Shown one piece after another: positions 20,828-51,641 of a DNA stretch of 64,000 bases. The stretch comes from Candidatus Fervidifonticultor sextus (GTDB lineage: Bacteria; Sysuimicrobiota; Sysuimicrobiia; Sysuimicrobiales; Humicultoraceae): positions 1 through 64,000 of the forward strand of contig JAVKHQ010000012.1 of the NCBI GenBank assembly GCA_031459875.1, written 5' to 3'. The notes beneath the pieces are model-generated. The model had not been told where the DNA came from and searched no databases. It saw only the letters and a list, made by a program, of their open reading frames with translations. The translations under genes and the position numbers were made by a program. Position 1 is the stretch's first letter; the number at the start of each line of letters is the position of its first letter.

Positions 20828-21506
20828 GGTGGACGGGGTCGTCAAGGCCTACGACCACCGGCCGGTGCTCCGCGGGGCCAGTCTCCGCGTGCGGACCGGA
20901 CAGACCGTGGCGGTGCTGGGCGCCAATGGATCCGGCAAGACCACGCTGCTGCGCCTGGTGGCCACGCTCTCTTCGCCGACCCGCGGCACGATCCGGCTCT
21001 TCGGCCGCCCGGCGGCGCCGCTGCCTGAGGTGCGGCGGCGGATCGGGCTGGTGCCGCACGAGTCGCTGCTCTACGACAGCCTGACCGTGGAGGAGAACCT
21101 GCGCTTCTTCGCAGGGCTGTACGGACTCCCCCGCCGACGGGTGGACGACCTGCTGGACCGCACGGCCCTGCGGCCCCTGGCCGGCCGCCGGGCGCGCGTG
21201 CTCTCCCGTGGCCAGCGGCAGCAGGTCAACCTGGCCCGCGCGTTGCTGCACGACCCCGAGTTACTGATCCTCGACGAGCCGTACACCGGGCTGGATCTGG
21301 GGGCCGCCGACCGCCTGACCGCGATGCTGCGGGATGCGGTGGGGCTGGGGCGAACGGTGCTCCTCACGACGCACGACCTGGCCCAGGCGCAGGACCTGAC
21401 AGCTGGCATCGCGGTGCTGCTCGACGGGCGCCTGACCGAGGTCATGCCCGCCGACAGCCTGGACGAGGGTCGCCTGGCGGCCTGGTTCCGCGAAGGCCGA
21501 CGATGA
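20811..21506 (+). CDS. ccmA: Heme exporter ATP-binding protein
   Basis: GANGSGKTT, LSRGQ, ILDEPYTGLD; ccm context. Confidence 0.88.
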   Translation: MPWAVEVDGVVKAYDHRPVLRGASLRVRTGQTVAVLGANGSGKTTLLRLVATLSSPTRGTIRLFGRPAAPLPEVRRRIGLVPHESLLYDSLTVEENLRFFAGLYGLPRRRVDDLLDRTALRPLAGRRARVLSRGQRQQVNLARALLHDPELLILDEPYTGLDLGAADRLTAMLRDAVGLGRTVLLTTHDLAQAQDLTAGIAVLLDGRLTEVMPADSLDEGRLAAWFREGRR

Positions 21507-22150
21507 GGGCCATCTGGCTGCTGGTCAGCAAGGATCTGCGTCTGGAGTGGCGGACGCGCGAGATCGTGACCACGGTGGGCCTGCTGGCGCTGCTGCTGGT
21601 CATCGTGCTCGGGGCCGCCCGGCCCGACCCCGAAGGCGCGCCCGCCGCCATGTGGGTGACCTACGCGTTTGCGGCCACGCTAGGCTTCACGCGGACCTTC
21701 GCCCTGGAGCGCGACCACCTGACCGGGCTGCGGCTGGCGCCGATCGATCGCGGCGCCATCTACGCCGCGAAGGCGCTGGCCAACTGGGTGATGCTCGCCG
21801 TCGTCCAGGCGGTCTCGCTCCCGGTCTTCGGCGCGCTCTTCACCGAGGCGATCTGGGCCCGCGTGCCTGCCCTCGCCCTGCCCATGGTCCTCGGGGGCGT
21901 CGGGCTGGCAGCCATCGGCACGCTCTTCGGCGGGCTGATCGTCCAGACGCGGCTGCGCGAGGCGCTGCTGCCGATCCTGATGCTGCCGGTGGCGCTGCCG
22001 CTGCTCATCGCGGCCACGAGCGCCACGGCCGCGATTCTCGATGGGGAGGCCATCGCGGCCGTCGGCGCGCAATTGCAGTTGCTGGGGGCCTTTGATATAG
22101 TGTTTATCACCACCAGCGTGGTGCTTTTCGACGTGGTCCTGGAGGAGTGA
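21503..22150 (+). CDS. ccmB: Heme exporter permease
   Basis: KDLRLEWR, LLPILMLP, several TM segments. Confidence 0.9.
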   Translation: MRAIWLLVSKDLRLEWRTREIVTTVGLLALLLVIVLGAARPDPEGAPAAMWVTYAFAATLGFTRTFALERDHLTGLRLAPIDRGAIYAAKALANWVMLAVVQAVSLPVFGALFTEAIWARVPALALPMVLGGVGLAAIGTLFGGLIVQTRLREALLPILMLPVALPLLIAATSATAAILDGEAIAAVGAQLQLLGAFDIVFITTSVVLFDVVLEE

Positions 22151-22162
22151 CGCCTGCCCGCC

Positions 22163-22822
22163 GTGATTCGTCCACTCCTGGTCGTCGCCACGGGCCTCAT
22201 GCTGGTCGGCGCGGCGTGGGCGCTGCTGGTGGCACCCGAAGAGGCGTTTCAGGGAGTCCCCCAGCGGATCATGTACATCCATGTGCCCAGCGTCATCACC
22301 GCCTACGCAGCCCTCGCCGTGGTGTTCGTCGGCAGCGTGCTCTTCCTCTGGCGGCGCGATGCCCGCTGGGATCACCTCGCCCACGCCGCGGCCGAGCTGG
22401 CGGTGCTGTTCATCTCGATGACGTTGATCTCGGGTGCCATCTGGGGCAAGCCGGTGTGGGGCACCTGGTGGACCTGGGATGCCCGGCTGACGACCACGCT
22501 GATCCTGTGGTTCATCTACGTGGGCTACCTGATCGTGCGCGCGTGGGCCCCGGGCTCCCGCGGCGCGCGAACCGCGGCGGTCATCGGCATCGTGGGTGTG
22601 CTGGACGTCCCGCTCATCCACTGGTCCGCGATTCTGCTGCGCACCCTGCACCCGCAGCCCACCGTGTTGCGGCCTGAAGGGCCGGCGCTGCCCGCCAGCA
22701 TGCTGGTCCCCCTGGTGGTGAACCTCGCTGCCTACCTCCTGATGTTTGTGGCGCTGCTTGCGATCCGGGTGCGTCAGGAGCGCACGCTGACCGCGCTCGT
22801 CGACGCCCTGGAGGGAGCCTAG
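22163..22822 (+). CDS. ccmC: Heme exporter CcmC
   Basis: YIHVP, WGKPVWGTWWTWDARLT (WWD motif), TLHP. Confidence 0.93.
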   Translation: MIRPLLVVATGLMLVGAAWALLVAPEEAFQGVPQRIMYIHVPSVITAYAALAVVFVGSVLFLWRRDARWDHLAHAAAELAVLFISMTLISGAIWGKPVWGTWWTWDARLTTTLILWFIYVGYLIVRAWAPGSRGARTAAVIGIVGVLDVPLIHWSAILLRTLHPQPTVLRPEGPALPASMLVPLVVNLAAYLLMFVALLAIRVRQERTLTALVDALEGA

Positions 22823-22826
22823 CCCG

Positions 22827-22958
22827 GTGGGCTTCGTCGCTGCCGCCTATCTGATCGTCACCGCCCTCTTCGCGGGTTATGCCCTGACGCTGGCTGGCCG
22901 GCAGCGGCTCATCGCGGACCTGGCCGAGGCGGCCGGCCTGGAGGAGGCGCGGCGATGA
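22827..22958 (+). CDS. ccmD: CcmD-like small membrane protein (43 aa)
   Basis: Not in ORF track. MGFVAAAYLIVTALFAGYALTLAGRQR... between ccmC and ccmE. Confidence 0.75.
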   Translation: MGFVAAAYLIVTALFAGYALTLAGRQRLIADLAEAAGLEEARR

Positions 22959-23353
22959 GCGCCACGAAGCGCAAACTGCTGGTCGGCTCGCTGGTCATCG
23001 TCGCGGCACTGGGCTTCGTGGCCTATCAGGGCGTGCGTTCGTCGATGGTCTACTACCTGACCCCGACCGAGTTCAAGAACCGACCGGATCTTGCTCACCA
23101 GAAGGTCCGCATGGCCGGGGAAGTTGTCCCGGGATCGGTGCAGCGGTCGGGAGGGACGGTTCGTTTCACCATTACCGACGGCACCACGCTCTACGCCGTG
23201 TCCTACGGGGGGCCGCTTCCGGACCTCTTCGCCGAAGGCCGACAGGTGCTGGTCGAGGGGCGCCTGGACCGGCAGGGGATGCTGGTGGCCTCGCAGGTGA
23301 TCTCGACGCACCCATCGGAATACCAGGAGAAGCACCCGGACCGGCAACCGTGA
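22955..23353 (+). CDS. ccmE: Heme chaperone CcmE
   Basis: YYLTP, LPDLFAEG, heme motif H-PSE-Y. Confidence 0.92.
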   Translation: MSATKRKLLVGSLVIVAALGFVAYQGVRSSMVYYLTPTEFKNRPDLAHQKVRMAGEVVPGSVQRSGGTVRFTITDGTTLYAVSYGGPLPDLFAEGRQVLVEGRLDRQGMLVASQVISTHPSEYQEKHPDRQP

Positions 23354-23517
23354 CGCCGGGCGTCCTGCTGATCATGGTCGCGATGGTCTGGGCGGTCGTG
23401 CTGGTCGGTCTGCTCAGGCTGCTGGCGGTGATGGAGCGCGTCGAGCGCCTGGCCCCCGACCAGGGGGGGAGGGTGCCCGCCCGCTCGCCGACCGTCGGGG
23501 GGATGCGCCGTGGGTGA
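23350..23517 (+). CDS. Second small single-TM protein (55 aa), CcmD-like
   Basis: Not in ORF track. GTGA overlap with ccmE and overlaps ccmF start; MTPGVLLIMVAMVWAVVLVGLLRLLAVMERVERL... Confidence 0.6.
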   Translation: MTPGVLLIMVAMVWAVVLVGLLRLLAVMERVERLAPDQGGRVPARSPTVGGMRRG

Positions 23518-25516
23518 GATCGGTCGCTTCGCCCTCCAGGCCGGGGTCGTCGTCGCCCTCTACGGCTTGGTCGTGACGGTGCTGGGCATCCGGTGGCATC
23601 ACGGCGGGTTCCTGGAGGCGGGCCGGCGGGCTGCGGTCGTCTGGGCGCTGCTGATGGCGCTGGCCAGTGCCGCGCTGTTCGCCGCCTTCCTGTCCAGGGA
23701 TTTCTCCGTGCGCTTCGTCGCTGCGGCCAGCGAGTCGACCCAGTCGCTGTTCTACACCGTGACGGCGTTCTGGGGCGGGCACGACGGGGCCCTGCTCCTG
23801 TGGGCGCTGATCCTGGCGGGGTACCTGGTGGCCGGGATCCGGAGCCTGCGGCACCATCCCGACTTCCAGGCGCCGGCAGCGGCGACGCTGTTGCTGATCG
23901 CGGCGTTCTTCTCGCTCCTGCTGGCTGCGGCCAGCAACCCCTTTGCGCCCATGATCCCGCCGCCGCCGGACGGACAGGGTCTCAACCCGCTGCTGCGCAA
24001 CCCCTGGATGGCTGCCCACCCGCCGACGCTGTACCTGGGCTTTGTGGGGATGAGCATGCCGTTTGCGGTGGCGGTCGCCGCCCTGGTCACCGGTCGGCTC
24101 GACGACACCTGGATCGTACTGGCGCGACGGTGGGTCGTGGTCGCCTGGATGTTCCTCACGCTGGGCCTGCTCTTTGGGGCGAAGTGGTCGTACGTGGTGC
24201 TGGGGTGGGGAGGGTACTGGGCCTGGGACCCGGTGGAGAACGCGGCCTTCATGCCCTGGCTGACCGCCACGGCGTTCCTGCACTCGATCCAGATTCAGGA
24301 GCGCCGCGGCATGCTGGCCACCTGGAACGTGGCCCTGGTCCTGATCACCTTCGGCCTGACGATCTTCGGGACGTTCCTGGTCCGCAGCGGGGTGCTGTCC
24401 TCGATCCACGCGTTCGCCCAGTCGCCGATCGGTTACCTTTTCCTGGGCTTCCTGGCGGTGCTGCTGGTGGGGTCCTTTGCGCTCCTGGCCTGGCGGTGGG
24501 ACGCCCTCCACAGCCGCGGGACCGTGGAGTCCGTGGTCAGCCGGGAGACCGCGTTCCTCGCCAACAACCTGCTGTTCGTCGTCGCCGCCGTGGTCGTGTT
24601 CCTCGGGACGATTTTCCCGGCCCTCACCGAGGCCTTCCGCGGGGTCAAGATCAACGTGGGGCCCACCTACTTCAATATGGTGATGATCCCCATCGCCGTG
24701 GGCATCCTGCTGCTCATGGGGGTGGGGCCGCTGCTGCCGTGGCGGCGGGCGACCCCCGAGCAGCTCTCCCGCAACTTCATGCTCCCCGGGGCTGGCGCCC
24801 TCCTGGTCGCCCTGGTGCTGGCACTGCTCGGCGTCCGCTCCAGCGGCGCGCTGCTGGTCTTCGCGCTGGCGGCCTTCGTTTTCGGCACCATCGTCCTGGA
24901 GGCGGCCAGGGGGACGGCGGTGCGGATGCGGCGGGGCGAGGGACCGGCTGTGGCCCTGGTCCGTCTGGTGGTCCGCAACCGCCGCCGGTACGGCGGCTAC
25001 ACGGTGCACCTCGGCATCCTGCTCATGCTGGTGGGGATTGCGGGCAGCAGCGCCTTTGCCACGCAGGGGCAGGCCATGGTGCGGCCCGGTGAGCGGTTTT
25101 CCGTGGCCGGCTATACCCTGGAGTACGGCGGCCTCAGCCACTTCGAGCAGCCGGGGATCGACATCACCGAGGCGTCGGTAAGGGTCTGGGCCGGATCGAA
25201 GCCGCTGGGGGTCCTGCGGCCGCAGCGGTTGTTCTACCGCACCGCCGAGCAGCCGATGCACCACGTGGCGATCCGCTCCTCGGTGCGCGAGGACCTTTAC
25301 GTCATCCTCTCGGAGTGGACGCCGGACGGTCGGGCGCTGATCCGCGTGCTCGTCCACCCGCTGGTCTCCTGGTTGTGGGCCGGGGGCGCAGTCGTCGCCC
25401 TGGGCGTGATCCTGGCGGTCCTGCCCGAGACGTGGCGGCGCCTCCACCCCGCCGCCGCCCCGGTGCGTCGGCGTCCGCTGCCGGTCCCCGTCGGCGACTC
25501 CCCCGGGGCGTCGTGA
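23510..25516 (+). CDS. ccmF: Cytochrome c heme lyase CcmF
   Basis: GLNPLL..HPP, WGGYWAWDPVENA, RSG..SIHAF. Confidence 0.96.
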   Translation: MGEIGRFALQAGVVVALYGLVVTVLGIRWHHGGFLEAGRRAAVVWALLMALASAALFAAFLSRDFSVRFVAAASESTQSLFYTVTAFWGGHDGALLLWALILAGYLVAGIRSLRHHPDFQAPAAATLLLIAAFFSLLLAAASNPFAPMIPPPPDGQGLNPLLRNPWMAAHPPTLYLGFVGMSMPFAVAVAALVTGRLDDTWIVLARRWVVVAWMFLTLGLLFGAKWSYVVLGWGGYWAWDPVENAAFMPWLTATAFLHSIQIQERRGMLATWNVALVLITFGLTIFGTFLVRSGVLSSIHAFAQSPIGYLFLGFLAVLLVGSFALLAWRWDALHSRGTVESVVSRETAFLANNLLFVVAAVVVFLGTIFPALTEAFRGVKINVGPTYFNMVMIPIAVGILLLMGVGPLLPWRRATPEQLSRNFMLPGAGALLVALVLALLGVRSSGALLVFALAAFVFGTIVLEAARGTAVRMRRGEGPAVALVRLVVRNRRRYGGYTVHLGILLMLVGIAGSSAFATQGQAMVRPGERFSVAGYTLEYGGLSHFEQPGIDITEASVRVWAGSKPLGVLRPQRLFYRTAEQPMHHVAIRSSVREDLYVILSEWTPDGRALIRVLVHPLVSWLWAGGAVVALGVILAVLPETWRRLHPAAAPVRRRPLPVPVGDSPGAS

Positions 25517-25797
25517 TCGAGGCCGCCTTCTTCGTCGTCGCGGTGCTGGCTGCCCTCTATCTGCTGGCGCCGGCCCTCCGTCCGGGCGAGGTGCCGGCGC
25601 CAGACCCCCGTGCAGCGCTGGAGGCCGCGCGCGACGCCGCGCTGCGTTCGCTCAAGGACCTCGACCTCGACTGGGCCACCGGCAAGCTCTCCGACGAGGA
25701 CTACCGAACCCAGCGTGCGGCGCTGGAGGCCGAGACGGCGGCCATCGTGCGACAGCTGGCGGCGCTGGAGCCCCAGACGCCGGAGGCGGGCGAGTGA
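25513..25797 (+). CDS. CcmI-like small membrane protein
   Basis: N-terminal TM plus LKDLDLDWATGKLSDEDY. Confidence 0.7.
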   Translation: MIEAAFFVVAVLAALYLLAPALRPGEVPAPDPRAALEAARDAALRSLKDLDLDWATGKLSDEDYRTQRAALEAETAAIVRQLAALEPQTPEAGE

Positions 25798-26771
25798 TCC
25801 CCCGCCGGGCACTGGCGCTGGCCGCCTTCCTCGGGGCGCTCCTGGCGGGGGAGATGGGTTCCGCAGACGGCGCCACCCCGGGGCTGCCCCTCGTATCCCC
25901 GGCGCCGGCCGGGCCTGCAGGCGGCGGCATCACCGGCCTGGTGCGCAACGGGACCACCGGGCAGCCGACGCCGGGCGTCCTGATCCAGCTGGTGCTCATC
26001 GGTCCACAGGGGCCCCAGGTCGCCGCCGAGACCCGCAGCGATGCGCGGGGGCAGTTCGCCTTCCGCGGCCTGGTCGACGGCCGGTACCTGCTCCAGGCCC
26101 GCTATCAGGGCGTCTCGTATGCCACACACGCCGTGCTGAGCGGCGGTGCGGCCGCAGATGTCGTCGTGCAGGTCTTCGACGCGTCGCCGAGCGTGCCGTT
26201 GCGCCTCGGGCTGCTGGGCGTGGCCGTCGACGTGCGCGCAGGGTACGTGCGCGTCTCAGAGGTGGCGCACCTGCAGAATCCCACAACCCGGACGCTGCTC
26301 GGCGAGGTCGTCATCCCGCTCCCCCGCGGTGGCCGCTACGTCACCTTCCTGGAGGGGTTCCACCAGCCGCGGGCACGGGACGCGCAGATCGCCGACCGCC
26401 TGATCGTCCGGCCCGGCGGCCACCAGCTGGCCTACGCCTACAGCCTGCCCGGCAGCGGCGAGGTCTCCCTCGACCGCCGGCTGGTGTGGCCGACCGACCG
26501 CGTCGAAGTCTTCGTGACGGCGCCGGCCGAAGCGCGCTCGCCCCGGCTGCAGCCGATGCCGGCGGTGACCAACGAGGAAGGGCGGACCTTTACCCGCGCC
26601 TCCGGCCGCGCGGTGCCCCCGGGCGACCTCCCGATCTCCGTCATCGGTGTCCCGGACGCGCGGCTCTGGACGGCCCCGGCGGCCGCCGGGACGCTGGCGG
26701 TGGTGCTCACCGTGGGGTTGATGTGGGCCATCCGCAGGGCAGGAGTTGTCACCGGCGCGCAGAACCCGTAA
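25794..26771 (+). CDS. Exported protein with carboxypeptidase-regulatory-like domain and C-terminal TM anchor
   Basis: Signal peptide, ITGLVRNGTTG..SDARGQFAF. Confidence 0.75.
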   Translation: MIPRRALALAAFLGALLAGEMGSADGATPGLPLVSPAPAGPAGGGITGLVRNGTTGQPTPGVLIQLVLIGPQGPQVAAETRSDARGQFAFRGLVDGRYLLQARYQGVSYATHAVLSGGAAADVVVQVFDASPSVPLRLGLLGVAVDVRAGYVRVSEVAHLQNPTTRTLLGEVVIPLPRGGRYVTFLEGFHQPRARDAQIADRLIVRPGGHQLAYAYSLPGSGEVSLDRRLVWPTDRVEVFVTAPAEARSPRLQPMPAVTNEEGRTFTRASGRAVPPGDLPISVIGVPDARLWTAPAAAGTLAVVLTVGLMWAIRRAGVVTGAQNP

Positions 26772-26778
26772 TCACGTC

Positions 26779-27684
26779 GTGAGGCTGTGCGGGCCGTCTG
26801 GCACTCTCCGGTCCTTCCTGGTGCTCGTGGCGTTCGCAATGGTGGCAGCCGGCTGTCAGCCGACCCTCAGGGTCCGGGGCCAGGCGGCGACCGTGGGCGC
26901 CGGGCTGCCTCAGGCGCCCGCCGCGAAGGCGCTGGCGCCGACCAACCCGCGGCCGTCGGCCGAGCGCGGACGGGCCGTCTACGAGCGGGCCTGCTGGCCC
27001 TGTCACGGCAACACCGGGTTGGGCGACGGGCCGGCGGCCGCCGGCCTGGTCGCCCCGCACAAGAACCCGATGACCGACTTCTTCGGCATGTTCGGCATCA
27101 AGATCAAGGGCGAAGACCTGCCGTCGCGGCCGGCCAACTTCCACAATCAGGTGGCCATGCGGCTGAATGCGCCGTTCTCGCTGTTCGAGGTGATCAAGCT
27201 GGGGCGTCCCCACACCGCCATGCCGGCCTTCAGTCCCAAGGCGGCCTACGGTGCCAACCGGGGGTTCCCGACGCTGACCGACGCGCAGATCTGGGACGTG
27301 CTCTTCTACGAGTGGACCTTCGCCACGGCCCCGGCCGCCGTGGAGCGGGGCCGGCGGATCGACCAGGAGCAGGCCATCGAGATCGGTGGGCAGTCGACGA
27401 CGTGCGCGGCCTGCCACGGGCCCGCCGGCGACGGCCGGGGCGGCGCCCGCAGCGCCGAGATGGCGGCGCGGGTCTGGGGGTGGGACAAGGGCGTCGGTCC
27501 AGGCATCTTCACCGACGTCAACCGCATGCTGCAGCAAAAGCCCGCAGAACTCTTCCAGCGCATCATCCGCGGCCACGGGCTGATGCCCGCGTACCGCGAT
27601 CTTTTGAGTGAAGACGACGTGTGGGCTCTGGTAGACTATCTGTGGACGTTCGTCTACGACTACCGGCCGGCGCGGGGGCAGTAG
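26779..27684 (+). CDS. Diheme cytochrome c, probable lipoprotein
   Basis: CWPCH, CAACH with distal MP motifs; lipobox-like AAGC; start uncertain. Confidence 0.88.
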   Translation: MRLCGPSGTLRSFLVLVAFAMVAAGCQPTLRVRGQAATVGAGLPQAPAAKALAPTNPRPSAERGRAVYERACWPCHGNTGLGDGPAAAGLVAPHKNPMTDFFGMFGIKIKGEDLPSRPANFHNQVAMRLNAPFSLFEVIKLGRPHTAMPAFSPKAAYGANRGFPTLTDAQIWDVLFYEWTFATAPAAVERGRRIDQEQAIEIGGQSTTCAACHGPAGDGRGGARSAEMAARVWGWDKGVGPGIFTDVNRMLQQKPAELFQRIIRGHGLMPAYRDLLSEDDVWALVDYLWTFVYDYRPARGQ

Positions 27685-27688
27685 GGAG

Positions 27689-28351
27689 ATGGCGCAGGAC
27701 CCAGGGGTGGACCGCAGGCGGTTCTTGAAGATGGCCGCGAGCCTGCCCATCGCCGGAGGCCTGATCGCTTTTGCCTCGCCCCTGCTGCGCTTCCTCAAGC
27801 CCAACGTGGACCCCTTCGCCGTGCTCACCCCCACGGCCGAAGACGTCCCGACGGGGGAGCCGGTGGTGGCGGCCGCGCTGTCCGAGATCCCCAGGCCGTG
27901 GGACTTCAAGTACTTCGTCTTCACCCAGAAATACCCGCAGTACACGCCCGAGGGCTTCAAGACGCAAGCGGTGCCCGGCGTCGTCATCCGGCTGCCGCGG
28001 AAGATCCGCCTCCCGTGGGCGTGGGTGCGCCAGACGGGCGAGACCCCGCAGTTCGAGGAGAGCGAGATCATCGCGTTTTCGCGGATCTGCCCGCACCTCG
28101 GTTGCATCTACAACTACGTGCCGGAGTGGCGGGAAATCACCTCCGGGTACGGCGGCTACGTTCCCGAGCCGAGCCGCCGGCATGCCCTGATGGGCTGCCC
28201 GTGCCACCTGAGCATCTACGACCCGGCGGACCCGGAGCAGCCGGGCCGGGTGCTCTCGGGTCCGGCGCCGCGGCCGCCGCGCACGTTCTTCTACGAGATC
28301 CAGCAGGAGCGGATCCTGGTCAAGCGCGTGGAACCCGGCGGGATCGCCTGA
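27689..28351 (+). CDS. Rieske iron-sulfur protein of Rieske/cyt b complex 1
   Basis: Tat motif DRRRFLK, CPHLGC...CPCHLSIY, GPAPRP. Confidence 0.93.
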   Translation: MAQDPGVDRRRFLKMAASLPIAGGLIAFASPLLRFLKPNVDPFAVLTPTAEDVPTGEPVVAAALSEIPRPWDFKYFVFTQKYPQYTPEGFKTQAVPGVVIRLPRKIRLPWAWVRQTGETPQFEESEIIAFSRICPHLGCIYNYVPEWREITSGYGGYVPEPSRRHALMGCPCHLSIYDPADPEQPGRVLSGPAPRPPRTFFYEIQQERILVKRVEPGGIA

Positions 28352-28378
28352 TGAGGGAGTGGTCGGTCCGGTGATGCG

Positions 28379-29533
28379 ATGACCGCGATGCTGGCCAATC
28401 TCCAGGAGTGGTACCGCGACCGGCGGGCGAAGCTCGACCTGTTCGACGAGACCCTGGTCGCCCAGCAGGCGAATCCCCTCTACCTGCTGGGGCCGATGCT
28501 CTACTACTTCTGGATCGTCACCGTTGCCAGCGGCGTGATCCTCATGTTCTGGTACGAGCCGACGCCCACCGGCGCCTACAACTCGATCCTCCACATCCAG
28601 CACGAGGTGCCGCTGGGCTGGCTGTGGCGCGGGGTCCACAAGTACGCTGCCGACGGCGTGATCATCACCATCATCCTGCGGATCTACCGGATGTACTTCC
28701 TGGGCGAGTACAAGAAGCCCGGGGAACTTTCCTGGATCTGGGCGTTCGCCGGCCTGATCCTGGGCATGATCTCGGGCATTACCGGCTACCTCCTGATCTG
28801 GAACCAGCGGGCATTCTGGGCGGCGAAGACCGTGCTGACCGTCCCGGTCTACTTCGACGAGTTGACCGCGAAGATTCCGGTGATCGGCGAACGGTTCCAG
28901 CTGGGCTCCATGATCGCATACCTGTTCCTGGGCGGCCCGGCCGTCGGCGCGGCCACGTTGACCCGCTTCTACGCCCTGCACTTCGGCATCTCGCTGGTCC
29001 TGCTGATTGTGGCCGAGGTCTTCTACTACCGCACCCGCCGCCGGCGCCTCAACATGTCGCTGTTTCCCGTCCTGCTGTTCTCGGCGATGCTGGTTTTCAT
29101 CAGCTGGGCGCTGCCGGCCGAACTGGGCCGGCGGGCTGACCCCAACCGGACCCCGCTGCCGATCCTCTCGGACTGGTACTTCCTGGCCCTCTACCAGTAC
29201 GTGAAATACACGCCCCCGCTGTGGGCCGGGCTGGGCCCGGGCCTGTTGATCGGGTTCGGGATGCTGGTGCCCTTCCTGGATCGCAGCAAGGGTCGGCGGC
29301 CGCTGGAGCGCCCGTTCTTCTTCGTCGTCGGGCTGCTGGCGCTGGCGTACTTCCTGATCTTCACGACCCTCATCATGTTCAACATCGCGGTCATCGAGCG
29401 CGAGCCGCCCATCGTCCTGCTGGTCACCACGGTGGTCCTGCTGGCGGCGTTCATCTGGGAGGTGCGGTACCGCCGCCGTCAGGCTCAGGCAGCGGCGCCG
29501 CCGCCACATCCGGCGCGGGCCCCTGCCCACTGA
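28379..29533 (+). CDS. Cytochrome b subunit 1 (lacks both heme bH His ligands)
   Basis: RGVHKY, TGYLLIW, RFYALH, SDWYF. Confidence 0.92.
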   Translation: MTAMLANLQEWYRDRRAKLDLFDETLVAQQANPLYLLGPMLYYFWIVTVASGVILMFWYEPTPTGAYNSILHIQHEVPLGWLWRGVHKYAADGVIITIILRIYRMYFLGEYKKPGELSWIWAFAGLILGMISGITGYLLIWNQRAFWAAKTVLTVPVYFDELTAKIPVIGERFQLGSMIAYLFLGGPAVGAATLTRFYALHFGISLVLLIVAEVFYYRTRRRRLNMSLFPVLLFSAMLVFISWALPAELGRRADPNRTPLPILSDWYFLALYQYVKYTPPLWAGLGPGLLIGFGMLVPFLDRSKGRRPLERPFFFVVGLLALAYFLIFTTLIMFNIAVIEREPPIVLLVTTVVLLAAFIWEVRYRRRQAQAAAPPPHPARAPAH

Positions 29534-29539
29534 GGCGCC

Positions 29540-29818
29540 ATGCGGACGCTGCGCTCCTGGGCGGTGTTTGTGGCGGCGGTCGTCTCGTTCTCGCGGCTGT
29601 GGCAGGGGGTCCGCGCGGCGCTGGAGGGCGGGCGCCTCTATGGCCCGCTCGAGGCCCTGTTCTGGATGGGCCTGTTCCTGGGGAGCATGGGGTACCTGGC
29701 CTTTCTGATCTACGCAGCGGACCGGGCCGCCGGCCGCACGCGCCGGCCGATGCCGCTGTTCGACCGCCTGCTGGACCGCCGCACGGGAACCGGTGAGGTG
29801 GGGGCCCGTGGGCGCTGA
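29540..29818 (+). CDS. Small 2-TM membrane protein
   Basis: Inside the operon; two hydrophobic segments. Confidence 0.7.
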   Translation: MRTLRSWAVFVAAVVSFSRLWQGVRAALEGGRLYGPLEALFWMGLFLGSMGYLAFLIYAADRAAGRTRRPMPLFDRLLDRRTGTGEVGARGR

Positions 29819-30035
29819 ACGGGCGCGCTATGCCGCCGCCGTCTTTGTCCTGGCGGGCATCGGGGCGGCCTGCGCGGTGGTCATCGTCCTCGGCGAGATC
29901 CTGGGGGGCCCGCAGCGGCCCTGGTTCTGGCAGGCCGGCGGCGCGGCGCTGGGCCTGATCTTCGTGGTCTACGGCCTGATCCTGCTGTTGCTGCGGAAGA
30001 TGGGGCTGGTCGGCCCGCGGCGGGCCGAGCGCTAG
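29808..30035 (+). CDS. Small 2-TM membrane protein
   Basis: Overlaps previous ORF; two hydrophobic segments. Confidence 0.65.
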   Translation: MGAERARYAAAVFVLAGIGAACAVVIVLGEILGGPQRPWFWQAGGAALGLIFVVYGLILLLLRKMGLVGPRRAER

Positions 30036-30046
30036 GGGGGGGCGGC

Positions 30047-31204
30047 GTGTACCGGCGGACGCTTTCGGCCCTGCTGCGCTGGACCCTGCGGTTGGACGTG
30101 TTCGTCAACCGCGTCTGGCCGTCCGACCTGAACCCGCTGTACTACACTGGCGGACTCGCCAACCTGTTCCTGTTCATCCTGGTGCTCTCAGGCCTCTTCA
30201 TCTTCTTCTACTACGTGCCGAGCCTGGGAGGGGCGCACGCGTCGGTGGCCTACCTCACGGAGCAGGTGCCCTACGGCGGGTTGATCCGGGGTATCCACCG
30301 GTATGCGGCCGACGCGTTCATCGTGGCGGCGCTGCTGCACCTGTTCCGCAACTGGTTCACCGACCGCTACCTGTTCGCGCGGGACTCCCCGTGGATCTCC
30401 GGCATGTTCATGCTGCTGCTGGGCGGGTTCGTCGGCGCAACCGGCTACATCCTGGTGTGGGACGAGCGGGGGCTGGTCGTCCTCTCGGTCTTCGTCGACA
30501 TGCTGAAGTCCATCCCCGGTGCCGGCGACTTCCTGGCCGCCCTGCTGGTGGGCGGGTCGGGCCTCTCGGAGGGCACGTTGCCCCGCGTGCTGCTGCTGCA
30601 CGTGGGGCCGGCCTCGGCACTCTACCTCCTCCTCTGGTGGCACTACGTGCGGCTGCGCCACCCCAAGGTCTGGCCGCCCGCCACCTGGGTGCTGATCTCG
30701 CTGGGGGTCGTCACGCTGCTGGCCGCGCTGGTGCCCGCTGTCAGCGGCACGCCCGCCGTCCCGGGCGCTGCGCCCCGCGCCATGGCCGTCGATGTCTTCT
30801 TCCTGCTGCCGTTCTGGCTGGCCGGCTACCTGCCGTCCATCGTGATCGTCGGGGCGGTCGCCCTGCTGTTCGCGGGCGGTTTCGTGATCCCCTACGTCAG
30901 CCGCGAGTCCCCCCGGCAGATGGGCGTGCGGCACGCCGGGGTGGCCCAGGTGATCGACGGGAACTGCACCGGGTGCGAACTGTGCTACTACGACTGCCCG
31001 TACAACGCCATTGTCATGGTGCCCTCGCCCTACCCTGGGCTGACGCGGGCCGCGGCGAACCGGAAGCTGCTGGCTGTCGTGGTCGACTCCCGGTGCGTGG
31101 AGTGCGGCATCTGCATCGGCGCCTGCCCCTTCGAGGCGCTGGAACTGCCGGGGTTGCTGGAGGCCGACGTGCGGCGGCGGATTGCCGAGGCGGTGCGCGC
31201 ATGA
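30047..31204 (+). CDS. Cytochrome b subunit 2 fused to 2x[4Fe-4S] ferredoxin
   Basis: RGIHRYAAD..LLH, LLH..WWH; CTGCELCYYDCP and CVECGICIGACP. Confidence 0.92.
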   Translation: MYRRTLSALLRWTLRLDVFVNRVWPSDLNPLYYTGGLANLFLFILVLSGLFIFFYYVPSLGGAHASVAYLTEQVPYGGLIRGIHRYAADAFIVAALLHLFRNWFTDRYLFARDSPWISGMFMLLLGGFVGATGYILVWDERGLVVLSVFVDMLKSIPGAGDFLAALLVGGSGLSEGTLPRVLLLHVGPASALYLLLWWHYVRLRHPKVWPPATWVLISLGVVTLLAALVPAVSGTPAVPGAAPRAMAVDVFFLLPFWLAGYLPSIVIVGAVALLFAGGFVIPYVSRESPRQMGVRHAGVAQVIDGNCTGCELCYYDCPYNAIVMVPSPYPGLTRAAANRKLLAVVVDSRCVECGICIGACPFEALELPGLLEADVRRRIAEAVRA

Positions 31205-31683
31205 CGGACCCTGCCCCCCCACCCGGCGGGGGAGCGCCGCGCGTGGTGGGCTTCGTGTGCGACTGGGCGGTCTCCACGGCAGGCCTCACCGATGCCGCCG
31301 GCCGTCTGCTCGCCCATCCGTCGGTGGTGCTGATCCGCGTCCCCTGCTCGGGATTCATCCGGCCCTCGTGGCTGGAGGAGACGCTGCGGGATGGGGCGGA
31401 TGGAGTCTTCGTCGTGGGGTGTCCGTACGGCGACTGCCTCAACCGCGAGGGAAACTACCTCATGCGGGAGCGCATCGAGCAACTGCAGCGGCGGCTGCAG
31501 CGCCGGAAGGTCGAGCCGGAACGGCTGTCCATGCTGGCCCACGGCCTCCACGACCGAGAGGCGTTCCTGGCCGACGTCGGGGCGCTGGTGGAGGCGCTGG
31601 AGCGGCTGGGGCCCGCGGCCAGGCCCGTCCCGCTGCGGGCCGCGGTCCCGGCAGCGGCCCCCGCTGAGGAGGGGAAACCGTGA
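31201..31683 (+). CDS. MvhD/FlpD-like [2Fe-2S] subunit
   Basis: VGFVCDW, IRVPCSG, ADGVFVVGC..GDC..EGN. Confidence 0.88.
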   Translation: MTDPAPPPGGGAPRVVGFVCDWAVSTAGLTDAAGRLLAHPSVVLIRVPCSGFIRPSWLEETLRDGADGVFVVGCPYGDCLNREGNYLMRERIEQLQRRLQRRKVEPERLSMLAHGLHDREAFLADVGALVEALERLGPAARPVPLRAAVPAAAPAEEGKP

Positions 31684-31784
31684 AGCGCCCGCTGCGTGTA
31701 TGGGTCTCCTACATCCTCTTCTACCTGTTCTTCTTCATCCTGCTGCTGTTCGTGGCATCGTTCGGGCTCATCGCCGAAGCCTGA
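31680..31784 (+). CDS. 34-aa single-TM peptide
   Basis: Not in ORF track. GAGGAGG RBS, GTGA overlap; MKRPLRVWVSYILFYLFFFILLLFVASFGLIAEA. Confidence 0.65.
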   Translation: MKRPLRVWVSYILFYLFFFILLLFVASFGLIAEA

Positions 31785-31788
31785 CCCG

Positions 31789-32766
31789 GTGAGCACCGAC
31801 CTCGACCGGATCTACGCGCCCATCGCCGAGGATCTGCGTGCCCTGGGCGAGTTGCTGCGCCGCGAACTCGCCACCGACGACCCCTTCATCGGCGAACTGA
31901 TCGGTCACGTGCTGGGCAGCCGGGGCAAACTGGTCCGGCCGGCGCTGGCGCTGCTGTCGGCGGCGGCAGCCGGCGGTGCCGATGAACAGCGGCTGCACCT
32001 GGCCGGGACGGTCGAACTCATCCACATCGCGTCGCTCATCCACGACGACATCATTGACGCCGCGGACCTGCGGCGCGGGATGTCCACGGTCAACATGCTC
32101 TGGGGCAATCAGGTGGCCGTGCTGCTGGGCGACTACCTGTTTGCCACCGCCTTCGACCTGGTGAGCCGGATCCGTCATCCGGACGTGGCGCCGGCGATCG
32201 CCACGGCGGCGGTCGCCATGAGTCAGGCCGAGATCCAGGCCGTCCGCATCGGGGGCGAGCCTTACGAGGACGAGGCCACCTACTACAGCATCATCGAGGG
32301 GAAGACCGCGCGGCTCTTCGCGGCGGCGTGCCGGGCGGGGGCGCTGATCGCCGGCGCGCCGCCGGCGATCGCCGACGCCCTGGAGGCCTTCGGGCTGCAG
32401 TGGGGGATGTCGTTCCAGATCACCGACGACGCCCTGGACCTGACCGGCAACCGCCAGGAACTCGGCAAGCCCATCGGCAGCGACATCGACACCGGCCGGG
32501 TGACCCTGCCGGTCATCGTGGCCCTCCGTCAGGCCTCCGAGGCCGACCGGCAGCGCCTGTCGGCCCTGGTCCGCCACCCCTCCGGCGATGGGGCCCAGGA
32601 CGAACTGCGCGCGCTGGTGGACCGCTACGGCGGGCTCCGCGCGGCCCTGGAGTCGGCGCGCAGGTTCGCAGACCAAGCCCGCGTGGCGCTGACAGACCTG
32701 CCCCCGAGCCGGGCCAAGGACAGCCTCCAGGACCTGGCGGACTTCGTCCTGGTGCGGGCGCGTTAG
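31789..32766 (+). CDS. Long-chain polyprenyl diphosphate synthase
   Basis: GKLVRP, ASLIHDDIID, GKTA, FQITDDALD. Confidence 0.93.
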   Translation: MSTDLDRIYAPIAEDLRALGELLRRELATDDPFIGELIGHVLGSRGKLVRPALALLSAAAAGGADEQRLHLAGTVELIHIASLIHDDIIDAADLRRGMSTVNMLWGNQVAVLLGDYLFATAFDLVSRIRHPDVAPAIATAAVAMSQAEIQAVRIGGEPYEDEATYYSIIEGKTARLFAAACRAGALIAGAPPAIADALEAFGLQWGMSFQITDDALDLTGNRQELGKPIGSDIDTGRVTLPVIVALRQASEADRQRLSALVRHPSGDGAQDELRALVDRYGGLRAALESARRFADQARVALTDLPPSRAKDSLQDLADFVLVRAR

Positions 32767-43083: not shown

Positions 43084-43245
43084 CCTGCATCGCACCGCGG
43101 CCGGTCAGGTCTTCGCCCGATGCCTCCGCTGGGTAAATACCGCATCCGCCGTATGGTCGCAGACTGCGGCGCTCCCTAGGATGGTCCTGACTTTGGCATG
43201 TCGGGGATGTGCGCGGGCTTAAGCCAGCGCACCGGGAGGATGAGC

Positions 43246-44208
43246 ATGGGAAGCAGATCCGCACCGGGACTCCCGGCGAAGCCAGCGATACGGCGCCGGG
43301 AGCTGTTGCGGCGCGGGGCGGCGGTTGCGGCCGCGGTGGGCGGCGGCGGGGCCCTCGCGGAGGTCCTGACGCGGCGGCGCACCGAGGCCCACCCGGCGGT
43401 GCCGGCGGCGATCCGCGACCCCAGGCCCGGTGAGCACCCGCTCGTCCGCATGCAGCGGGAGCTGCACCGGGCTCTGGCCAAGCCGATTGAGCGGCGCCAG
43501 TGGGTGATGGTGGTCGACACCAGGCGCTGTATCGGCTGTGACGCCTGCACGGTGGCCTGTATCGCCGAACACGGACTGCCGCCGGGCGTCTCCTACCGGA
43601 CGGTCGTGAAGGTGGAGGCCGGCGCGTTCCCCCACGTCGAGGCCTTCTTCAAACCGACCAACTGCATGCAGTGCGACAAGCCGCCCTGCCTGCCGGCGGC
43701 CAACGCCGTCAGCCCCGGTGCCATGGCCAAACGGCCGGACGGGATCGTCACGGTGGACTACGCGAAGTTCCACCGAAAGGCCTACGAGGCCGCCCGCAAG
43801 GCCTGCCCCTACAACGCGCTCTCCTTTGACGAGGGTCGCTACTGGACCCAGGGCACCCCAGCGCTGCAGGCCTACGAGACGCGCCCGAAAGTCGAGTACG
43901 GAAGGGTCTGGACCCGCTTGAACGGTGCCTTGCCCATTGGCGCGGGCCGGAAGTGCCACTTCTGCCTGCAGCGGATCGAGGCCGGGTTGCTGCCGGCGTG
44001 TGTGGCGACGTGTATCGGCGGCGCCCTGTACTTCGGCGACGCCGGCGACCCCGACAGCCTGGTCTCCGAACTGCGGCGCCAGGAGAAGGCCTGGCGCGTC
44101 AACGAGAGCCTGGGCACCGAGCCGCGCATGTACTACCTCGGCGCGGCCTCGCGCAAGACGATGCCGGCTACCACGCCCGAGTCGTGCCAGGCCTGTCACG
44201 GACGGTAG
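43246..44208 (+). CDS. TtrB/DmsB-like Fe-S subunit (3 predicted clusters, C-terminal CxxCH)
   Basis: Tat RRRELL; CIGCDACTVAC, CMQCDKPPC, ACPY, KCHFC..PACVATC; CQACH. Confidence 0.9.
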   Translation: MGSRSAPGLPAKPAIRRRELLRRGAAVAAAVGGGGALAEVLTRRRTEAHPAVPAAIRDPRPGEHPLVRMQRELHRALAKPIERRQWVMVVDTRRCIGCDACTVACIAEHGLPPGVSYRTVVKVEAGAFPHVEAFFKPTNCMQCDKPPCLPAANAVSPGAMAKRPDGIVTVDYAKFHRKAYEAARKACPYNALSFDEGRYWTQGTPALQAYETRPKVEYGRVWTRLNGALPIGAGRKCHFCLQRIEAGLLPACVATCIGGALYFGDAGDPDSLVSELRRQEKAWRVNESLGTEPRMYYLGAASRKTMPATTPESCQACHGR

Positions 44209-44220
44209 AGGAGGAGCGCC

Positions 44221-47200
44221 ATGGCCAGGAAGATGCCCGCGCACACCACCCGTCGCAGGCTGCTGGCCTCCGCCGCCCTCCTGGGCGGGGCGGCGGCCTA
44301 CGGCCAGATCGCAAAGGTGCTGAGCACGCCGGCCCTGGCGGAAGCGGCCGAGGCCGGGGCGCCCTACCCGTATGGGAAGCCCGAGAACACACTCTACACG
44401 GTCTGCCTCCAGTGCAACACCGGCTGCGGCATCAAGGTGTACCTGGAGCGCGGCGTGGCCGTCAAGATCGAGGGCAACCCCCTCAGCCCCTGGACGATGG
44501 CCCCGCACCTGCCGTACCGGACGCCGGTCGCCGACCTCGCGGCGGTGAATGGCGCGATCTGTCCGAAAGGGCAGGCCGGCCTCCAGACCGTCTACGATCC
44601 CTACCGGATCCGCACGGTGCTCAAGCGGGCGGGTCCGCGTGGGTCGAACAAGTGGAAGAGCATCCCGTTCGAGCAGGCCATCAGCGAGATCGTCAACGGC
44701 GGCCGGCTCTTCGCAGAGATCCCCGGCGAGGAGCACCGCGTCGTGGAAGGGTTCAAGGATGTCTACGCCCTGCGCGATCCCGCGCTAGCCCGCGCCATGG
44801 CCACCGACGTCGCCCTGGTGAAGAGCAAGCGGATGACGGTCGAGCAGTTCAAGGCGAAGTACCGGGCCCATCTGCACGTCCTCATCGACCCCGATCACCC
44901 CGACCTGGGTCCCAAGAACAACCAGTTCGTCTACTGGAAGGGCCGCGAGAAGGGCGGCCGGGGGGACTTCGTTACCCGCTTTGCCGGCGACGCCTTCGGC
45001 ACCGTCAACCGCCACGGCCACACCACCGTCTGCCAGGGCTCCCTGTACTTCACCGGCAAGGCCATGAGCGACCAGTACGTGGGCGGCACGTGGACCGGCG
45101 GCCGGAAGTTCTACTGGCAGGCGGATACCGAGCATGCCGAGTTCATCATCTTCGTCGGCGCCAACCCCCTGGAAGCCAACTACGGGCCGCCGCTGCGCGC
45201 CGGGAAACTGACCGGGGGGATCGTCAGCGGGCGCCTCAAGATCGCGGTGGTGGATCCGCGATTCTCGCGGTCAGCCAGCAAGGCCTGGAAGTGGATCCCC
45301 AACAAGCCGGGGACCGAGGCCGCCGTCGCCATGGCCATGATCCGGTGGATCGTCGAGCACCAGCGGTTCGACGCCAGGTATCTGGCCAACGCCAACCGGG
45401 CTGCGGCGGCCGCCGACGGCGAGCCGACCTGGAGCAACGCCTCCTGGCTGGTGAAGATCGAAGACCACCAGCCCGGGAAGTTCCTGCGAGCGGCGGAGAT
45501 CGGCCTCTCCGACCGCGACCTGTTCGTGGTCCTCAAGGACGGCACACCCGTCGCCGTGGACCCCTACGATACCCGGACGCCGGTCGAGGGCGACCTCCTC
45601 GTGGACACCGTGGTGGGCGGGTTCCGGGTGAAGAGCGCGCTGCAGGTGCTCTACGACGAGGCGCGCAAGCGCTCCATCGCCGGGTGGGCGGCGCTGGCAG
45701 GGGTGTCGGCCGACGACCTAATTGAGGTGGCCAGGGAGTTCACCAGTCACGGCAAACGGGCCGCGGTGGACCTCCACCGGGGGTGCAGCCAGCACACGAA
45801 CGGCTTCTACAACTGCTTCACCTGGTACGCCTTGAACACGCTGATCGGCAACTACGACTGGAAGGGCGGCTCGGCCTGGGCGAGCGCCTACGACCAGGCT
45901 GGCGGTCGGCCCGGCGCACCGTTCAACGTGCGGGCGATGCACCCCGGGCGCACGACCGCCTTTGGGACCCCCTTGATCCGCAACGAGGAGAAGTACGAGG
46001 ACTCCACGCTGTTCTCGGGTTACCCGGCCCGGCGCCAGTGGTATCCCATGGCCAGCGACATCTACCAGGAACTGCTGCCGTCGGCCGCCGAAGGGTACCC
46101 CTACCCGATCAAGATCCTGCTGCTCTACATGGGCTCCCCTGCCTACGCGCTCCCGGCCGGGCACACCAACATCGAGCTGCTGGCCGATCCCACCAAGATC
46201 CCCCTGGTGATCGCCTGCGACATCCTGATCGGCACCACCTCCATGTACGCCGACTACATCTTCCCCGACCTCACCTACCTGGAGCGGTGGGAGTTCCACG
46301 GGACCCACCCCAGCGTGCTGCCCAAGGTCCAGCCAATCTACAGCCCGGTGATCGCGCCGCTGACCACGTCGGTGCGGGTGTACGGGGAGGAGGTGCCCGC
46401 TTCGTTCGAGGCCCTGATGCTGGCCATCGCCGAGAGACTGGGACTGCCGGGGTTTGGGCCCGACGGGTTCGGCCCGGGGCAGCCATTGACCCGTCCCGAC
46501 GACTTCTACATCCGCCTGGTCGCCAACGTGGCGTTTGGCGACCGCGCCGGCGACGAGGTCCCCGACGCCTCCCCCGAGGAGGAACGCCTGTTCCTGGCCG
46601 CCCGGGCCCATCTGCCCAAGTCGGTCTTCGACCCCGAGCGGTGGCGGGCAATCCTGGGCGAGCGGTGGTGGAAGAAGCTCGTCTTCGTGCTCAACCGCGG
46701 AGGACGGTTCGCGGACTACGACTCGGCCTTCGACGGCGAGAGGCTCCGCGGACACTACGGGAACCTGGTGAACCTCTACCTGGAGAAACTGGCGACCACG
46801 AAGCACGCGCTGACCGGTCGATCCTTCTCGGGCGCTCCGGGCTACCACCCGGTCGCGGACAGCCTGGGCCGGCCGATTCGGGACGAGGCCGCGGGCTACG
46901 ACCTGCACCTCATCACCAACCGGATCATCCTCCACACCAAGAGCCGGACGATCACGAACTACTGGCTCACCGGCATCCTGCCGGAGAACGACATCGTGAT
47001 GCACCCGAGGGACGCCCGGGCCCGCAACCTGAAGGACGGGGATCGGGTGCGCATCGTTTCGGCGACCAACCCCCGAGGCGAGTGGGACCTGAAGAACGGC
47101 CAGCGCATTCCCATGGTCGGCCGTCTGAAGGTCTCAGAGGGCATCAGGCCGGGCGTCATCGCCTTCCCCCTGGGATACGGGCACTGGGCCACGGGCGCCG

Positions 47201-47373: not shown

Positions 47374-47450
47374 CAGGCAGGTAACCCGGGGGTCGGTGCG
47401 GTAGACATTACACATATTAAGGACCAGTTCGCACCTCCCAGGACAGCAGC

Positions 47451-48955: not shown

Positions 48956-48962
48956 GTGACCG

Positions 48963-51463: not shown

Positions 51464-51641
51464 CACCCTCGGGTCCCGTCGCTCCCCTGTCGGCGGGCGA
51501 TTTTTGATGAGTATGTTTCGTGGAACCAGGGGCACTTCCTGCTGGCGCGCTCCCTGGTTACGCGTCGGCTCACGAGCACGTCGGCGGCCGACGGGCCAAG
51601 CGCCCGCGGCCGCCGTGGGGCGCGCCGTGCTGTGCGGCCCC

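Follow-up and report, generated by a model that had tools for sequence, protein, structure and literature searches.

A candidate asymmetric complex III in Sysuimicrobiota: one operon pairs a bH-less cytochrome b with a cytochrome b-ferredoxin and MvhD

Introduction

Textbook complex III is a symmetric homodimer, and both b haems of its cytochrome b are treated as indispensable. For this reason a survey of the cytochrome b family, in the accessible part of that paper, held all four haem-ligating histidines to be invariable and dropped the cytochromes b that miss any of them (Kao and Hunte, 2014; PMC4122944). An operon of eight genes in Candidatus Fervidifonticultor sextus, a bacterium of Candidatus Sysuimicrobiota (CSP1-3), raises the question of how a Rieske/cytochrome b complex might work if its two cytochromes b are unlike, if the first of them (b1) has lost the ligands of haem bH and if the second (b2) continues into a ferredoxin domain and is followed by a gene for an MvhD/FlpD-family protein. 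The operon was found in the 64,000 nucleotides of contig JAVKHQ010000012.1 (assembly GCA_031459875.1, positions 1 to 64,000) that were analysed here and that are called the window (G+C about 71%). It encodes a dihaem cytochrome c, a divergent Rieske protein, b1, two small membrane proteins (sm1 and sm2), b2-ferredoxin, MvhD and a membrane peptide.

We propose that the operon specifies the housekeeping complex III of Sysuimicrobiota, a quinol:cytochrome c oxidoreductase organised as a b1/b2 heterodimer with an iron-sulfur exit; with a probability of roughly 0.42 this is a tentative assignment. The parts are known, i.e., Rieske/cytochrome b complexes, the PDWF-FeS clade of cytochromes b and MvhD. 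In the literature searched, no operon was found in which a cytochrome b that faces a Rieske protein and has no bH stands together with a cytochrome b wired to iron-sulfur clusters; its mechanism is put forward here as a proposal. A preliminary description of the window, made from the letters of the DNA, had already proposed complementary losses in b1 and b2 and a path from ferredoxin to MvhD, possibly ending at the Wood-Ljungdahl methyl branch.

Cytochrome b1 has lost the bH site and keeps the Qo site

Both ligands of haem bL are present in b1 (His87, CAC at 28637; His201, CAC at 28979). In an alignment with cytochrome b6 (1vf5_A), Arg101 (CGG at 28679) lies over the helix-B bH histidine and the helix-D bH position is without histidine; Glu213 (GAG at 29015) is found 12 residues past His201. 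The Qo-type loop is intact and contains the motif SDWY at residues 264-267 (29168-29179). All of this agrees with the preliminary description, whose coordinates and codons hold throughout and whose assignment of the bL ligands, of Arg and Glu on the bH side and of a retained SDWY is borne out by the alignment to cytochrome b6.

The pattern is not peculiar to this genome. Arg101 is present in all 44 b1 orthologues that cover the position, Glu213 and SDWY are each present in 48/48, and none of these 48 orthologues has a histidine at the helix-D positions +11 to +16. A private mutation or a sequencing error is ruled out by this fixation. Arg101 and Glu213, both invariant, may pair inside the empty bH pocket. 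Haem ci was considered and rejected: its cysteine is absent from both b1 and b2 in the alignments with cytochrome b6, the position being occupied by Leu in b1 and by Tyr in b2.

In a homologue search with b1 the best 120 of 794 matches were all at least 72% identical and all from the same phylum, and a protein atlas search returned generic cytochrome b clusters only. The C-terminal tail of b1 (29504-29533) is variable and carries a conserved terminal histidine; among 26 aligned orthologues, the 6 whose aligned stretch extends this far all finish with PAH or AH.

Cytochrome b2 keeps four histidines and carries a cytoplasmic ferredoxin domain

All four haem ligands are kept in b2 (His84, His98, His185 and His199). 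Two CxxCxxCxxxCP motifs follow (Cys307-317 and Cys350-360) within residues 300-370, which match Fer4 families, and the four histidines and eight cysteines are invariant in 14/14 relatives. The equivalent of PEWY is VDVF (residues 248-251). The preliminary description was right on the four histidines and the double cysteine motif, and its term "degenerate" for VDVF fits the Trp and Pro only, because the Asp is kept in 147/151 sequences of the wider b2 family; for the acidic residue it does not hold.

Because two more hydrophobic spans follow helix D, the ferredoxin domain comes to lie on the N-terminal side of the membrane, which is cytoplasmic by homology. The predicted inner loops of b2, as read from the sequence, contain more Lys and Arg than the outer loops. 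Furthermore, in those fused relatives that end in a cytochrome c the order is ferredoxin, MvhD, one membrane span and then cytochrome c; as a c-type cytochrome must be outside, the span places ferredoxin and MvhD in the cytoplasm. A periplasmic ferredoxin was rejected on these three grounds, and the topology supports the cytoplasmic position that had been assigned to the domain after the last helix.

The start of mvhD overlaps the stop of b2 (ATGA). Its product has the solved relative 5odc_D (E 1.5e-22), the MvhD of an Mvh-Hdr complex, with which it shares the FlpD family and four conserved cysteines (Cys20, 49, 74 and 79, kept in 51-52 of 52 orthologues) and from which it differs by having Ala or Ser at one cysteine position of the canonical CC..C motif. 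By its cysteines it is presumed to bind one [2Fe-2S] cluster.

Cytochrome b2 belongs to the PDWF-FeS clade

By sequence b2 is a member of the catalogued "PDWF-FeS" clade of cytochromes b (Kao and Hunte, 2014; PMC4122944), which the preliminary description had not recognised. In the accessible part of that survey no Rieske protein accompanies the clade, and fusions of this kind are named in Magnetospirillum and Turneriella, together with a ferredoxin/flavin fusion in Alicycliphilus. A b2 profile recovered 322 representative clusters (50% identity, E<=1e-30) with the layout cytochrome b plus 2x[4Fe-4S]. Among the best 150 of these 322, taken together with the b2 of the window (151 sequences), 150-151 sequences retain the four histidines and at least 147 the eight cysteines; most of the best 150 are 500-790 residues long. 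An FlpD/MvhD domain stands behind the ferredoxin on the same chain in 13 of 14 long forms scanned (the exception being P0230), and in some long forms the chain continues through a further membrane span into an outer domain or a cytochrome c. Because most relatives, including most of the best 150, carry MvhD and the b2-type protein on one chain, b2, ferredoxin and MvhD would form one electron wire, for which the gene fusion is good evidence; the tie between b2-ferredoxin and MvhD that had been proposed is supported in this way. Those unfused forms that come closest to the window group in a single clade of 13 representatives (support 0.999 in a tree of 147 tips), with source labels from Obscuribacterales, Deinococcales, Chloroflexi and Holophagaceae.

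The contexts of the fused forms were taken from 79 metagenome loci, 39 of them with at least 3.5 kb of upstream sequence. A haem-copper oxidase subunit I gene (COX1) was found in 37 of these 39 and Sco1 in 33, and a scan of all 79 loci detected no Rieske motif. In some loci a NuoF-like gene (loci L064-L066) or a cytochrome b-[2Fe-2S]-FAD-NAD fusion (L108, L141) lies alongside. Several single observations belong to this family. The oxidase-linked cytochrome b-[2Fe-2S]-FAD-NAD(P) fusions (L108:5004-6950, L141:9799-12387) sometimes stand in tandem with a cytochrome b-FeS-MvhD gene, and in L065:8042-9370 a NuoF-like flavoprotein lies between two genes of the cytochrome b-FeS-MvhD type. A second, divergent COX1 paralogue is encoded at L068:10772-12250 (-) and at similar spots in many fused-form loci; it keeps the helix-X His pair and misses the helix-VII HH copper ligands. 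The Chloroflexi protein RME88945.1, listed with cytochrome b6, DMSOR_beta-like and FlpD domains near denitrification genes in Appendix 2 of PMC8756737, places the fused form in print as an uncommented table row.

Conservation and distribution of the b1/b2 pair

A genome scan returned 53 loci, all from Sysuimicrobiota, the closest named relative being a metagenome-assembled genome of Candidatus Fervidifonticultor octavus (locus L008), which is 94-96% identical over most operon proteins. The operon order is retained wherever the contig extends: b1 lies upstream of b2 in all 48 loci with upstream sequence, the remaining 5 loci being cut, mvhD adjoins b2 downstream in 53/53, and the operon contains one Rieske gene. 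Because the whole layout recurs in 53 related loci, the arrangement is more than chance.

Loop invariance was determined in the 44 genomes in which both b1 and b2 are complete. In the Qo/ef loop 32 of 45 positions are invariant in b1 vs 2 of 35 in b2, and in the cd loop 19 of 40 vs 8 of 39, whereas in the n-side (cytoplasmic) D-E loop it is 4 of 15 vs 8 of 15; the ferredoxin domain has 36 invariant positions out of 65. The constraint is complementary, b1 being fixed on the outer, quinol-oxidising face and b2 on the inner face and in the iron-sulfur domain. The co-occurrence of b1 and b2 and their complementary losses, both claimed from the single genome, have thereby turned out to be adjacency in every locus that could show it and an ancient, conserved feature. 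A complex prediction with b1 (26-row alignment), b2 (14-row alignment) and three haems, run without controls, gave scores of 0.25 and 0.20, the mark being 0.32, and speaks neither for nor against the pair.

For the phylum 94 species genomes were surveyed; two of those counted, G016 and G024, are unpublished and have the complex, and no conclusion depends on these two by themselves. The b2-ferredoxin complex is present in 81/94 genomes (79/92 without these two), always as a single copy and in all 7 families. Haem-copper oxidase subunit I is found in 82/94 genomes and in 78 of the 81 that bear the complex. In 34 of the 81, b1 and b2 are the only matches to PF00033, and in 56 the operon MvhD is the sole match to the FlpD family. 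An HdrA-like homologue (E<=1e-20) was found in 30/94 genomes and in 19 of the 81, with a query that was one C-terminal fragment, so that very distant forms could escape. Acetyl-CoA synthase (ACS) is present in 16/94 genomes and in 7 of the 81. The genus g12 shows the reverse combination (ACS 7/8, HdrA 8/8, complex 0/8, oxidase 0/8), a pattern that counts as about one evolutionary event and not as a statistic, because the genomes are kin.

In the families f5 (12/12), f7 and f2 a COX1-like gene without any haem or copper ligand follows mvhD. Its products (L045:7747-9141, L057:7577-8989) have 12 helices and Pfam COX1 scores of 88-93 bits, and this ligand-less neighbour echoes the oxidase linkage of the fused b2 family.

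Operon components and neighbouring genes

The eight genes form a tight series on the + strand with intergenic gaps of -26 to +27 nt (Table 1), and the gene order claimed in the preliminary description is confirmed by Pfam. The dihaem cytochrome c has CxxCH at residues 83 and 220, both retained in 40/40 orthologues, and starts with a hydrophobic signal that may contain a lipobox (AAGC). The Rieske protein carries a twin-arginine signal (DRRRFLK) and both cluster boxes (CPHLGC at residue 134, CPCHLSIY at residue 170); its closest solved relative is SoxF (1jm1, E 3e-5). Among its orthologues the cluster ligands and the Ser are kept in 42/42, the Tyr in 41/42 and the RR in 41/42. The Ser and Tyr of Rieske box II raise the cluster potential in bc1 and are common to SoxF; a high-potential Rieske cluster would give the low-potential branch more driving force.

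Table 1. Positions of the operon genes and of context genes in the window (nucleotide numbering of the window).
Feature	Position	Strand	Description
Dihaem cytochrome c	26746-27684	+	312 residues; alternative start 26779; Pfam Cytochrome_CBB3 and Cytochrom_C, two stretches
Rieske [2Fe-2S] protein, divergent	27689-28351	+	220 residues; Pfam Rieske 19.7 bits, just below the cut-off of 20.3
Cytochrome b1	28379-29533	+	384 residues, full-length eight-helix type; Pfam Cytochrome_B and Cytochrom_B_C
Small membrane protein sm1	29540-29818	+	92 residues; G+C at third codon positions (GC3) 0.91; one strong hydrophobic span; no Pfam family
Small membrane protein sm2	29793-30035	+	80 residues; GC3 0.95; two hydrophobic spans
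Cytochrome b2-ferredoxin fusion	30047-31204	+	Six helices and C-terminal 2x[4Fe-4S] domain; Pfam Cytochrome_B and Fer4 families
MvhD/FlpD-family protein	31201-31683	+	160 residues; Pfam FlpD (PF02662) 101 bits, cut-off 22.3
Membrane peptide, single span	31680-31784	+	34 residues; GC3 0.86; translationally coupled to mvhD
ccmB, ccmC, ccmE, ccmF (context, outside complex)	21503-25797	+	Pfam CcmB, Cytochrom_C_asm, CcmE, CcmF_C
Polyprenyl diphosphate synthase, quinone side-chain type (context)	31801-32766	+	Pfam polyprenyl_synt 214 bits
Carbon monoxide dehydrogenase/acetyl-CoA synthase (CODH/ACS; context)	53819-58441	+	CODH of the Prismane family, 804 residues; acetyl-CoA synthase beta, 728 residues

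The small membrane proteins recur as well: homologous open reading frames of sm1 lie at the matching position in most related loci, sm2 has positional homologues in related loci, and positional homologues of the 34-residue peptide (53-94% identity) were found by tblastn in 36/53 loci. The ccm genes lie directly upstream of the operon, a linkage that is also seen in L045, L057 and L058, and the polyprenyl diphosphate synthase gene lies directly downstream and is kept there in 42/53 loci. The space that separates the operon from the ccm genes holds a gene (25794-26771, +) for an exported CarboxypepD_reg-like protein of 325 residues with a C-terminal membrane anchor; some members of the phylum have it at the corresponding position (28-88% identity). 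Two-component systems lie on the flanks of the operon.

The window contains a second, canonical Rieske/cytochrome b cluster (43198-50252, +). It encodes a Fer4_11 protein and a molybdopterin oxidoreductase of 1050 residues, followed by a Rieske protein (47451-47897), by a cytochrome b in which the four histidines and PEWY are complete (47894-48955) and by a multihaem cytochrome c (48963-50252); further multihaem cytochromes are encoded on the opposite strand (50324-52760, -). On contig C15 of the same genome (L063:7296-10813, -) a polyferredoxin of 541 residues with an internal FlpD-like segment adjoins an NrfD-type membrane protein and molybdopterin oxidoreductases, which is another pairing of a quinone module with an MvhD-like protein.

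Proposed mechanism

According to the reading that we prefer, quinol would be oxidised at the Qo site of b1 and its first electron would pass over the Rieske cluster and the dihaem cytochrome c to the terminal oxidase. The second electron would enter haem bL of b1 and, because b1 has no bH ligands, it would have to pass over to the bL haem of b2 and then on, over haem bH of b2 and the two [4Fe-4S] clusters of the fused ferredoxin, to the cluster of MvhD, which would hand it to a soluble cytoplasmic carrier other than HdrA; our guess is a carrier at the level of NAD(P) or ferredoxin. The net flow on this path would be from the outer to the inner side, and b2 would work without a Qi site. A transfer from bL to bL at catalytic rates was reported for engineered, cross-inactivated bc1 in the accessible parts of PMC7908018 and PMC4330944.

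This reading is carried by the cofactor-ligand pattern and its conservation, by the topology, by the operon linkage, by the fusion of MvhD in relatives and by the co-distribution with oxidases (78/81), to which the flanking ccm and polyprenyl synthase genes are added. Several points weigh against it. Physical contact between b1 and b2 is a prediction of the model. If the operon encodes the sole complex III, half of the respiratory electrons would leave by the iron-sulfur arm, so that a high-flux acceptor is needed, and no cytoplasmic acceptor was found: an HdrA homologue is missing in 62/81 genomes, and none of the operon genes encodes a protein that binds NAD(P) or flavin. By textbook potentials, an electron that moves from bH to [4Fe-4S] would probably go uphill, and against the membrane potential. 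The outer site of b2 may not be dead, as an invariant Asp is kept at the PEWY-equivalent position and the wider family has D-W-F/Y there, and a Qi-type site on b2 may exist, although no clear Qi signature was found in its sequence. Finally, the b2 family usually lies beside haem-copper oxidase genes without a Rieske protein, or beside NuoF-like genes, and it is sometimes replaced by cytochrome b-FAD/NAD fusions, so that electrons may flow there from the cytoplasm to the outside.

The furthest-reaching form of the proposal is the more doubtful one. It holds that the obligate heterodimer abandons the Q cycle, that quinol bifurcation reduces a cytoplasmic carrier at the level of NAD(P)H or ferredoxin and so makes reductant or recycles it via complex I, and that at least 34 genomes have no other complex III; we consider it unlikely, while not far-fetched.

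Alternative explanations

Among the rivals the one that survives best, although we regard it as rather less than an even choice and in fact as quite unlikely, keeps the same heterodimer and turns the arm around: iron-sulfur clusters would be an input or side port, and a half-of-sites Q cycle would carry the bulk flux. A cytoplasmic reductant derived from NAD(P)H or ferredoxin would deliver electrons over MvhD and the ferredoxin domain to haem bH of b2, and from there they would either reduce quinone at a Qi-type site on b2 or move outwards via the b haems. Ferredoxin-driven cyclic electron flow is known at cytochrome b6f, and the port would be its hard-wired analogue. The wider b2 family, which is Rieske-less and accompanied by oxidase (COX1 in 37/39 loci), NuoF-like and cytochrome b-[2Fe-2S]-FAD-NAD genes, resembles such an entry from the cytoplasm into the membrane; the n-side D-E loop of b2 is strongly conserved (8/15 positions), and the problems of flux and of uphill potential would vanish. 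However, an input port leaves the loss of bH from b1 in every genome unexplained, and the operon encodes no donor enzyme. The histidine near bH of b2 is furthermore not fixed, being at +6 in the window and at +5 in the relative P0124 and replaced by Arg in P0123 and P0133, which speaks against a conserved Qi histidine of the bc1 type.

That b1 and b2 belong to two separate, co-transcribed complexes appears improbable. A b1 homodimer with Rieske protein and cytochrome c, lacking a working low-potential chain, would then stand beside a b2 homodimer with MvhD that acts like its Rieske-less relatives. Homodimers are usual for cytochromes b, and b2-type proteins do occur in other lineages without b1 or Rieske, as seen in the 79 loci and in what is accessible of Kao and Hunte (2014; PMC4122944). 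On the b1 homodimer the second electron would, from the mechanism of the Q cycle, be stranded on bL, whereas the reciprocal constraint on b1 and b2 and their adjacency in 48/48 loci would be expected of a shared complex. In the families f1, f3, f4 and f6, moreover, the query used found no oxidase-like neighbour next to b2-type genes.

A use of the iron-sulfur arm as a relief valve or as a redox sensor of the state of the b haems, e.g., limiting superoxide at Qo, is more improbable again. The arm is small, no dedicated partner gene was found and two-component systems flank the operon, all of which would suit such a role, but the ferredoxin domain is among the most conserved parts; and because b1 without bH leaves the arm or b2 as the only low-potential exit, the arm cannot be optional.

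The preliminary description had also named HdrA and the Wood-Ljungdahl methyl branch as an outlet and had called for a check of the genome for hdrA and metFV. Genes for MetF and for an HdrA-like protein are indeed there. CODH/ACS is encoded in the window, 22 kb downstream of the operon, and a Moorella-like methyl-branch cluster follows on the same contig 36-47 kb downstream of the operon and beyond the window (L061:3420-14722, i.e., 67420-78722 of contig C4). It comprises Fhs, MetF, an HdrA-like fusion of 1738 residues with cNMP-binding, GltD-like and HdrA-like plus ferredoxin domains, MvhD, an HdrBC-like protein, FchA and FolD. However, this cluster has its own MvhD (161 bits vs 101 bits for the operon copy), and a third MvhD lies beside an HdrA fragment and an NiFe hydrogenase. 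ACS is absent from 74 and HdrA from 62 of the 81 complex-bearing genomes, and g12 has both of them without the complex. This phylum distribution argues against HdrA or the methyl branch as the general partner and favours a housekeeping role in the chain of cytochrome c and oxidase. An arm that feeds an HdrA-type flavoprotein in a MetF-HdrA-MvhD-HdrBC module, and so couples quinol bifurcation to the methyl branch, is thus very improbable, being contradicted as a general function by the distribution, and could survive only as a lineage-specific add-on.

Comparison with known systems

Like bc1 and b6f, the proposed b1/b2 complex has a TAT-exported Rieske protein with both cluster boxes, one cytochrome b in which a Qo loop is present (b1), a cytochrome of the c type and small subunits with a single span. 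Among solved structures, cytochromes b6 come closest to b1 (E 1e-33) as well as to b2 (E 4e-29). It differs in that two unlike cytochromes b take the place of the homodimer. The four histidines are complete in b2, whereas b1 has those of bL only; the Qo motif is represented by SDWY in b1 and by VDVF in b2, which combines a weakly conserved Qo region with cytoplasmic iron-sulfur clusters. With the PDWF-FeS clade b2 shares the fusion to a non-Rieske 4Fe-4S domain. Different from that clade, a Rieske gene (two genes upstream of b2 if sm1 and sm2 are left aside) and a second, bH-less cytochrome b lie in the same operon, mvhD forms a gene of its own that overlaps b2, and VDVF stands in place of PDWF. 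The Mvh/Hdr module is distinguished from the operon by its HdrA partner, which most complex-bearing genomes lack, most of them having the operon MvhD as their only FlpD gene.

Operons of anammox bacteria reportedly carry an NAD(P)-binding flavoprotein and multihaem cytochromes. For the Rieske/cytochrome b complexes of these bacteria it was proposed that they make NAD(P)H (PMC12954380, as far as the text is accessible), which is the same idea of a low-potential quinol electron that goes to a cytoplasmic acceptor and not to Qi. The difference is that no NAD(P)- or FAD-binding subunit, i.e., no match to a flavin or NAD family, was found by Pfam among the eight operon products, and that no report of a bH-less cytochrome b was found in the accessible part of the anammox work. 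An obligatory crossing from bL to bL is also the principle of engineered, cross-inactivated bc1, in which b-b fusions have one Qo and the opposite bH knocked out (PMC7908018 and PMC4330944, accessible parts); these are laboratory constructs with a Qi exit, whereas the system of Sysuimicrobiota is natural, phylum-wide and has a proposed iron-sulfur exit.

A literature search that did not cover supplements, in which the genes may be listed, turned up no Rieske complex that combines MvhD and a cytochrome b-ferredoxin with a cytochrome b lacking bH. The terms "Rieske", "complex III" and "MvhD" are absent from the main texts of two papers on CSP1-3, the supplements of which may likewise list genes. 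A "complex III-IV operon" of Melainabacteria has reportedly been described by Soo et al. in 2017, a work known to us as cited in a preprint.

Significance

A cytochrome b without bH is fixed across a phylum, and many of its genomes have no complex III other than the one of which this cytochrome b would form half. Should the b1/b2 model be true, the complex would be a natural proof that electron transfer between monomers can be obligatory and not a bypass. It would also be a second independent case, after the anammox proposal, of a Rieske/cytochrome b complex that feeds the cytoplasm with low-potential electrons, and it would provide a handle on the function of the large Rieske-less cytochrome b-FeS-MvhD family found near haem-copper oxidase or NO-reductase genes. 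For the organisms themselves, chemoautotrophs that are widespread in soils, aquifers and hot springs, the finding bears on how respiration is balanced against the supply of reductant.

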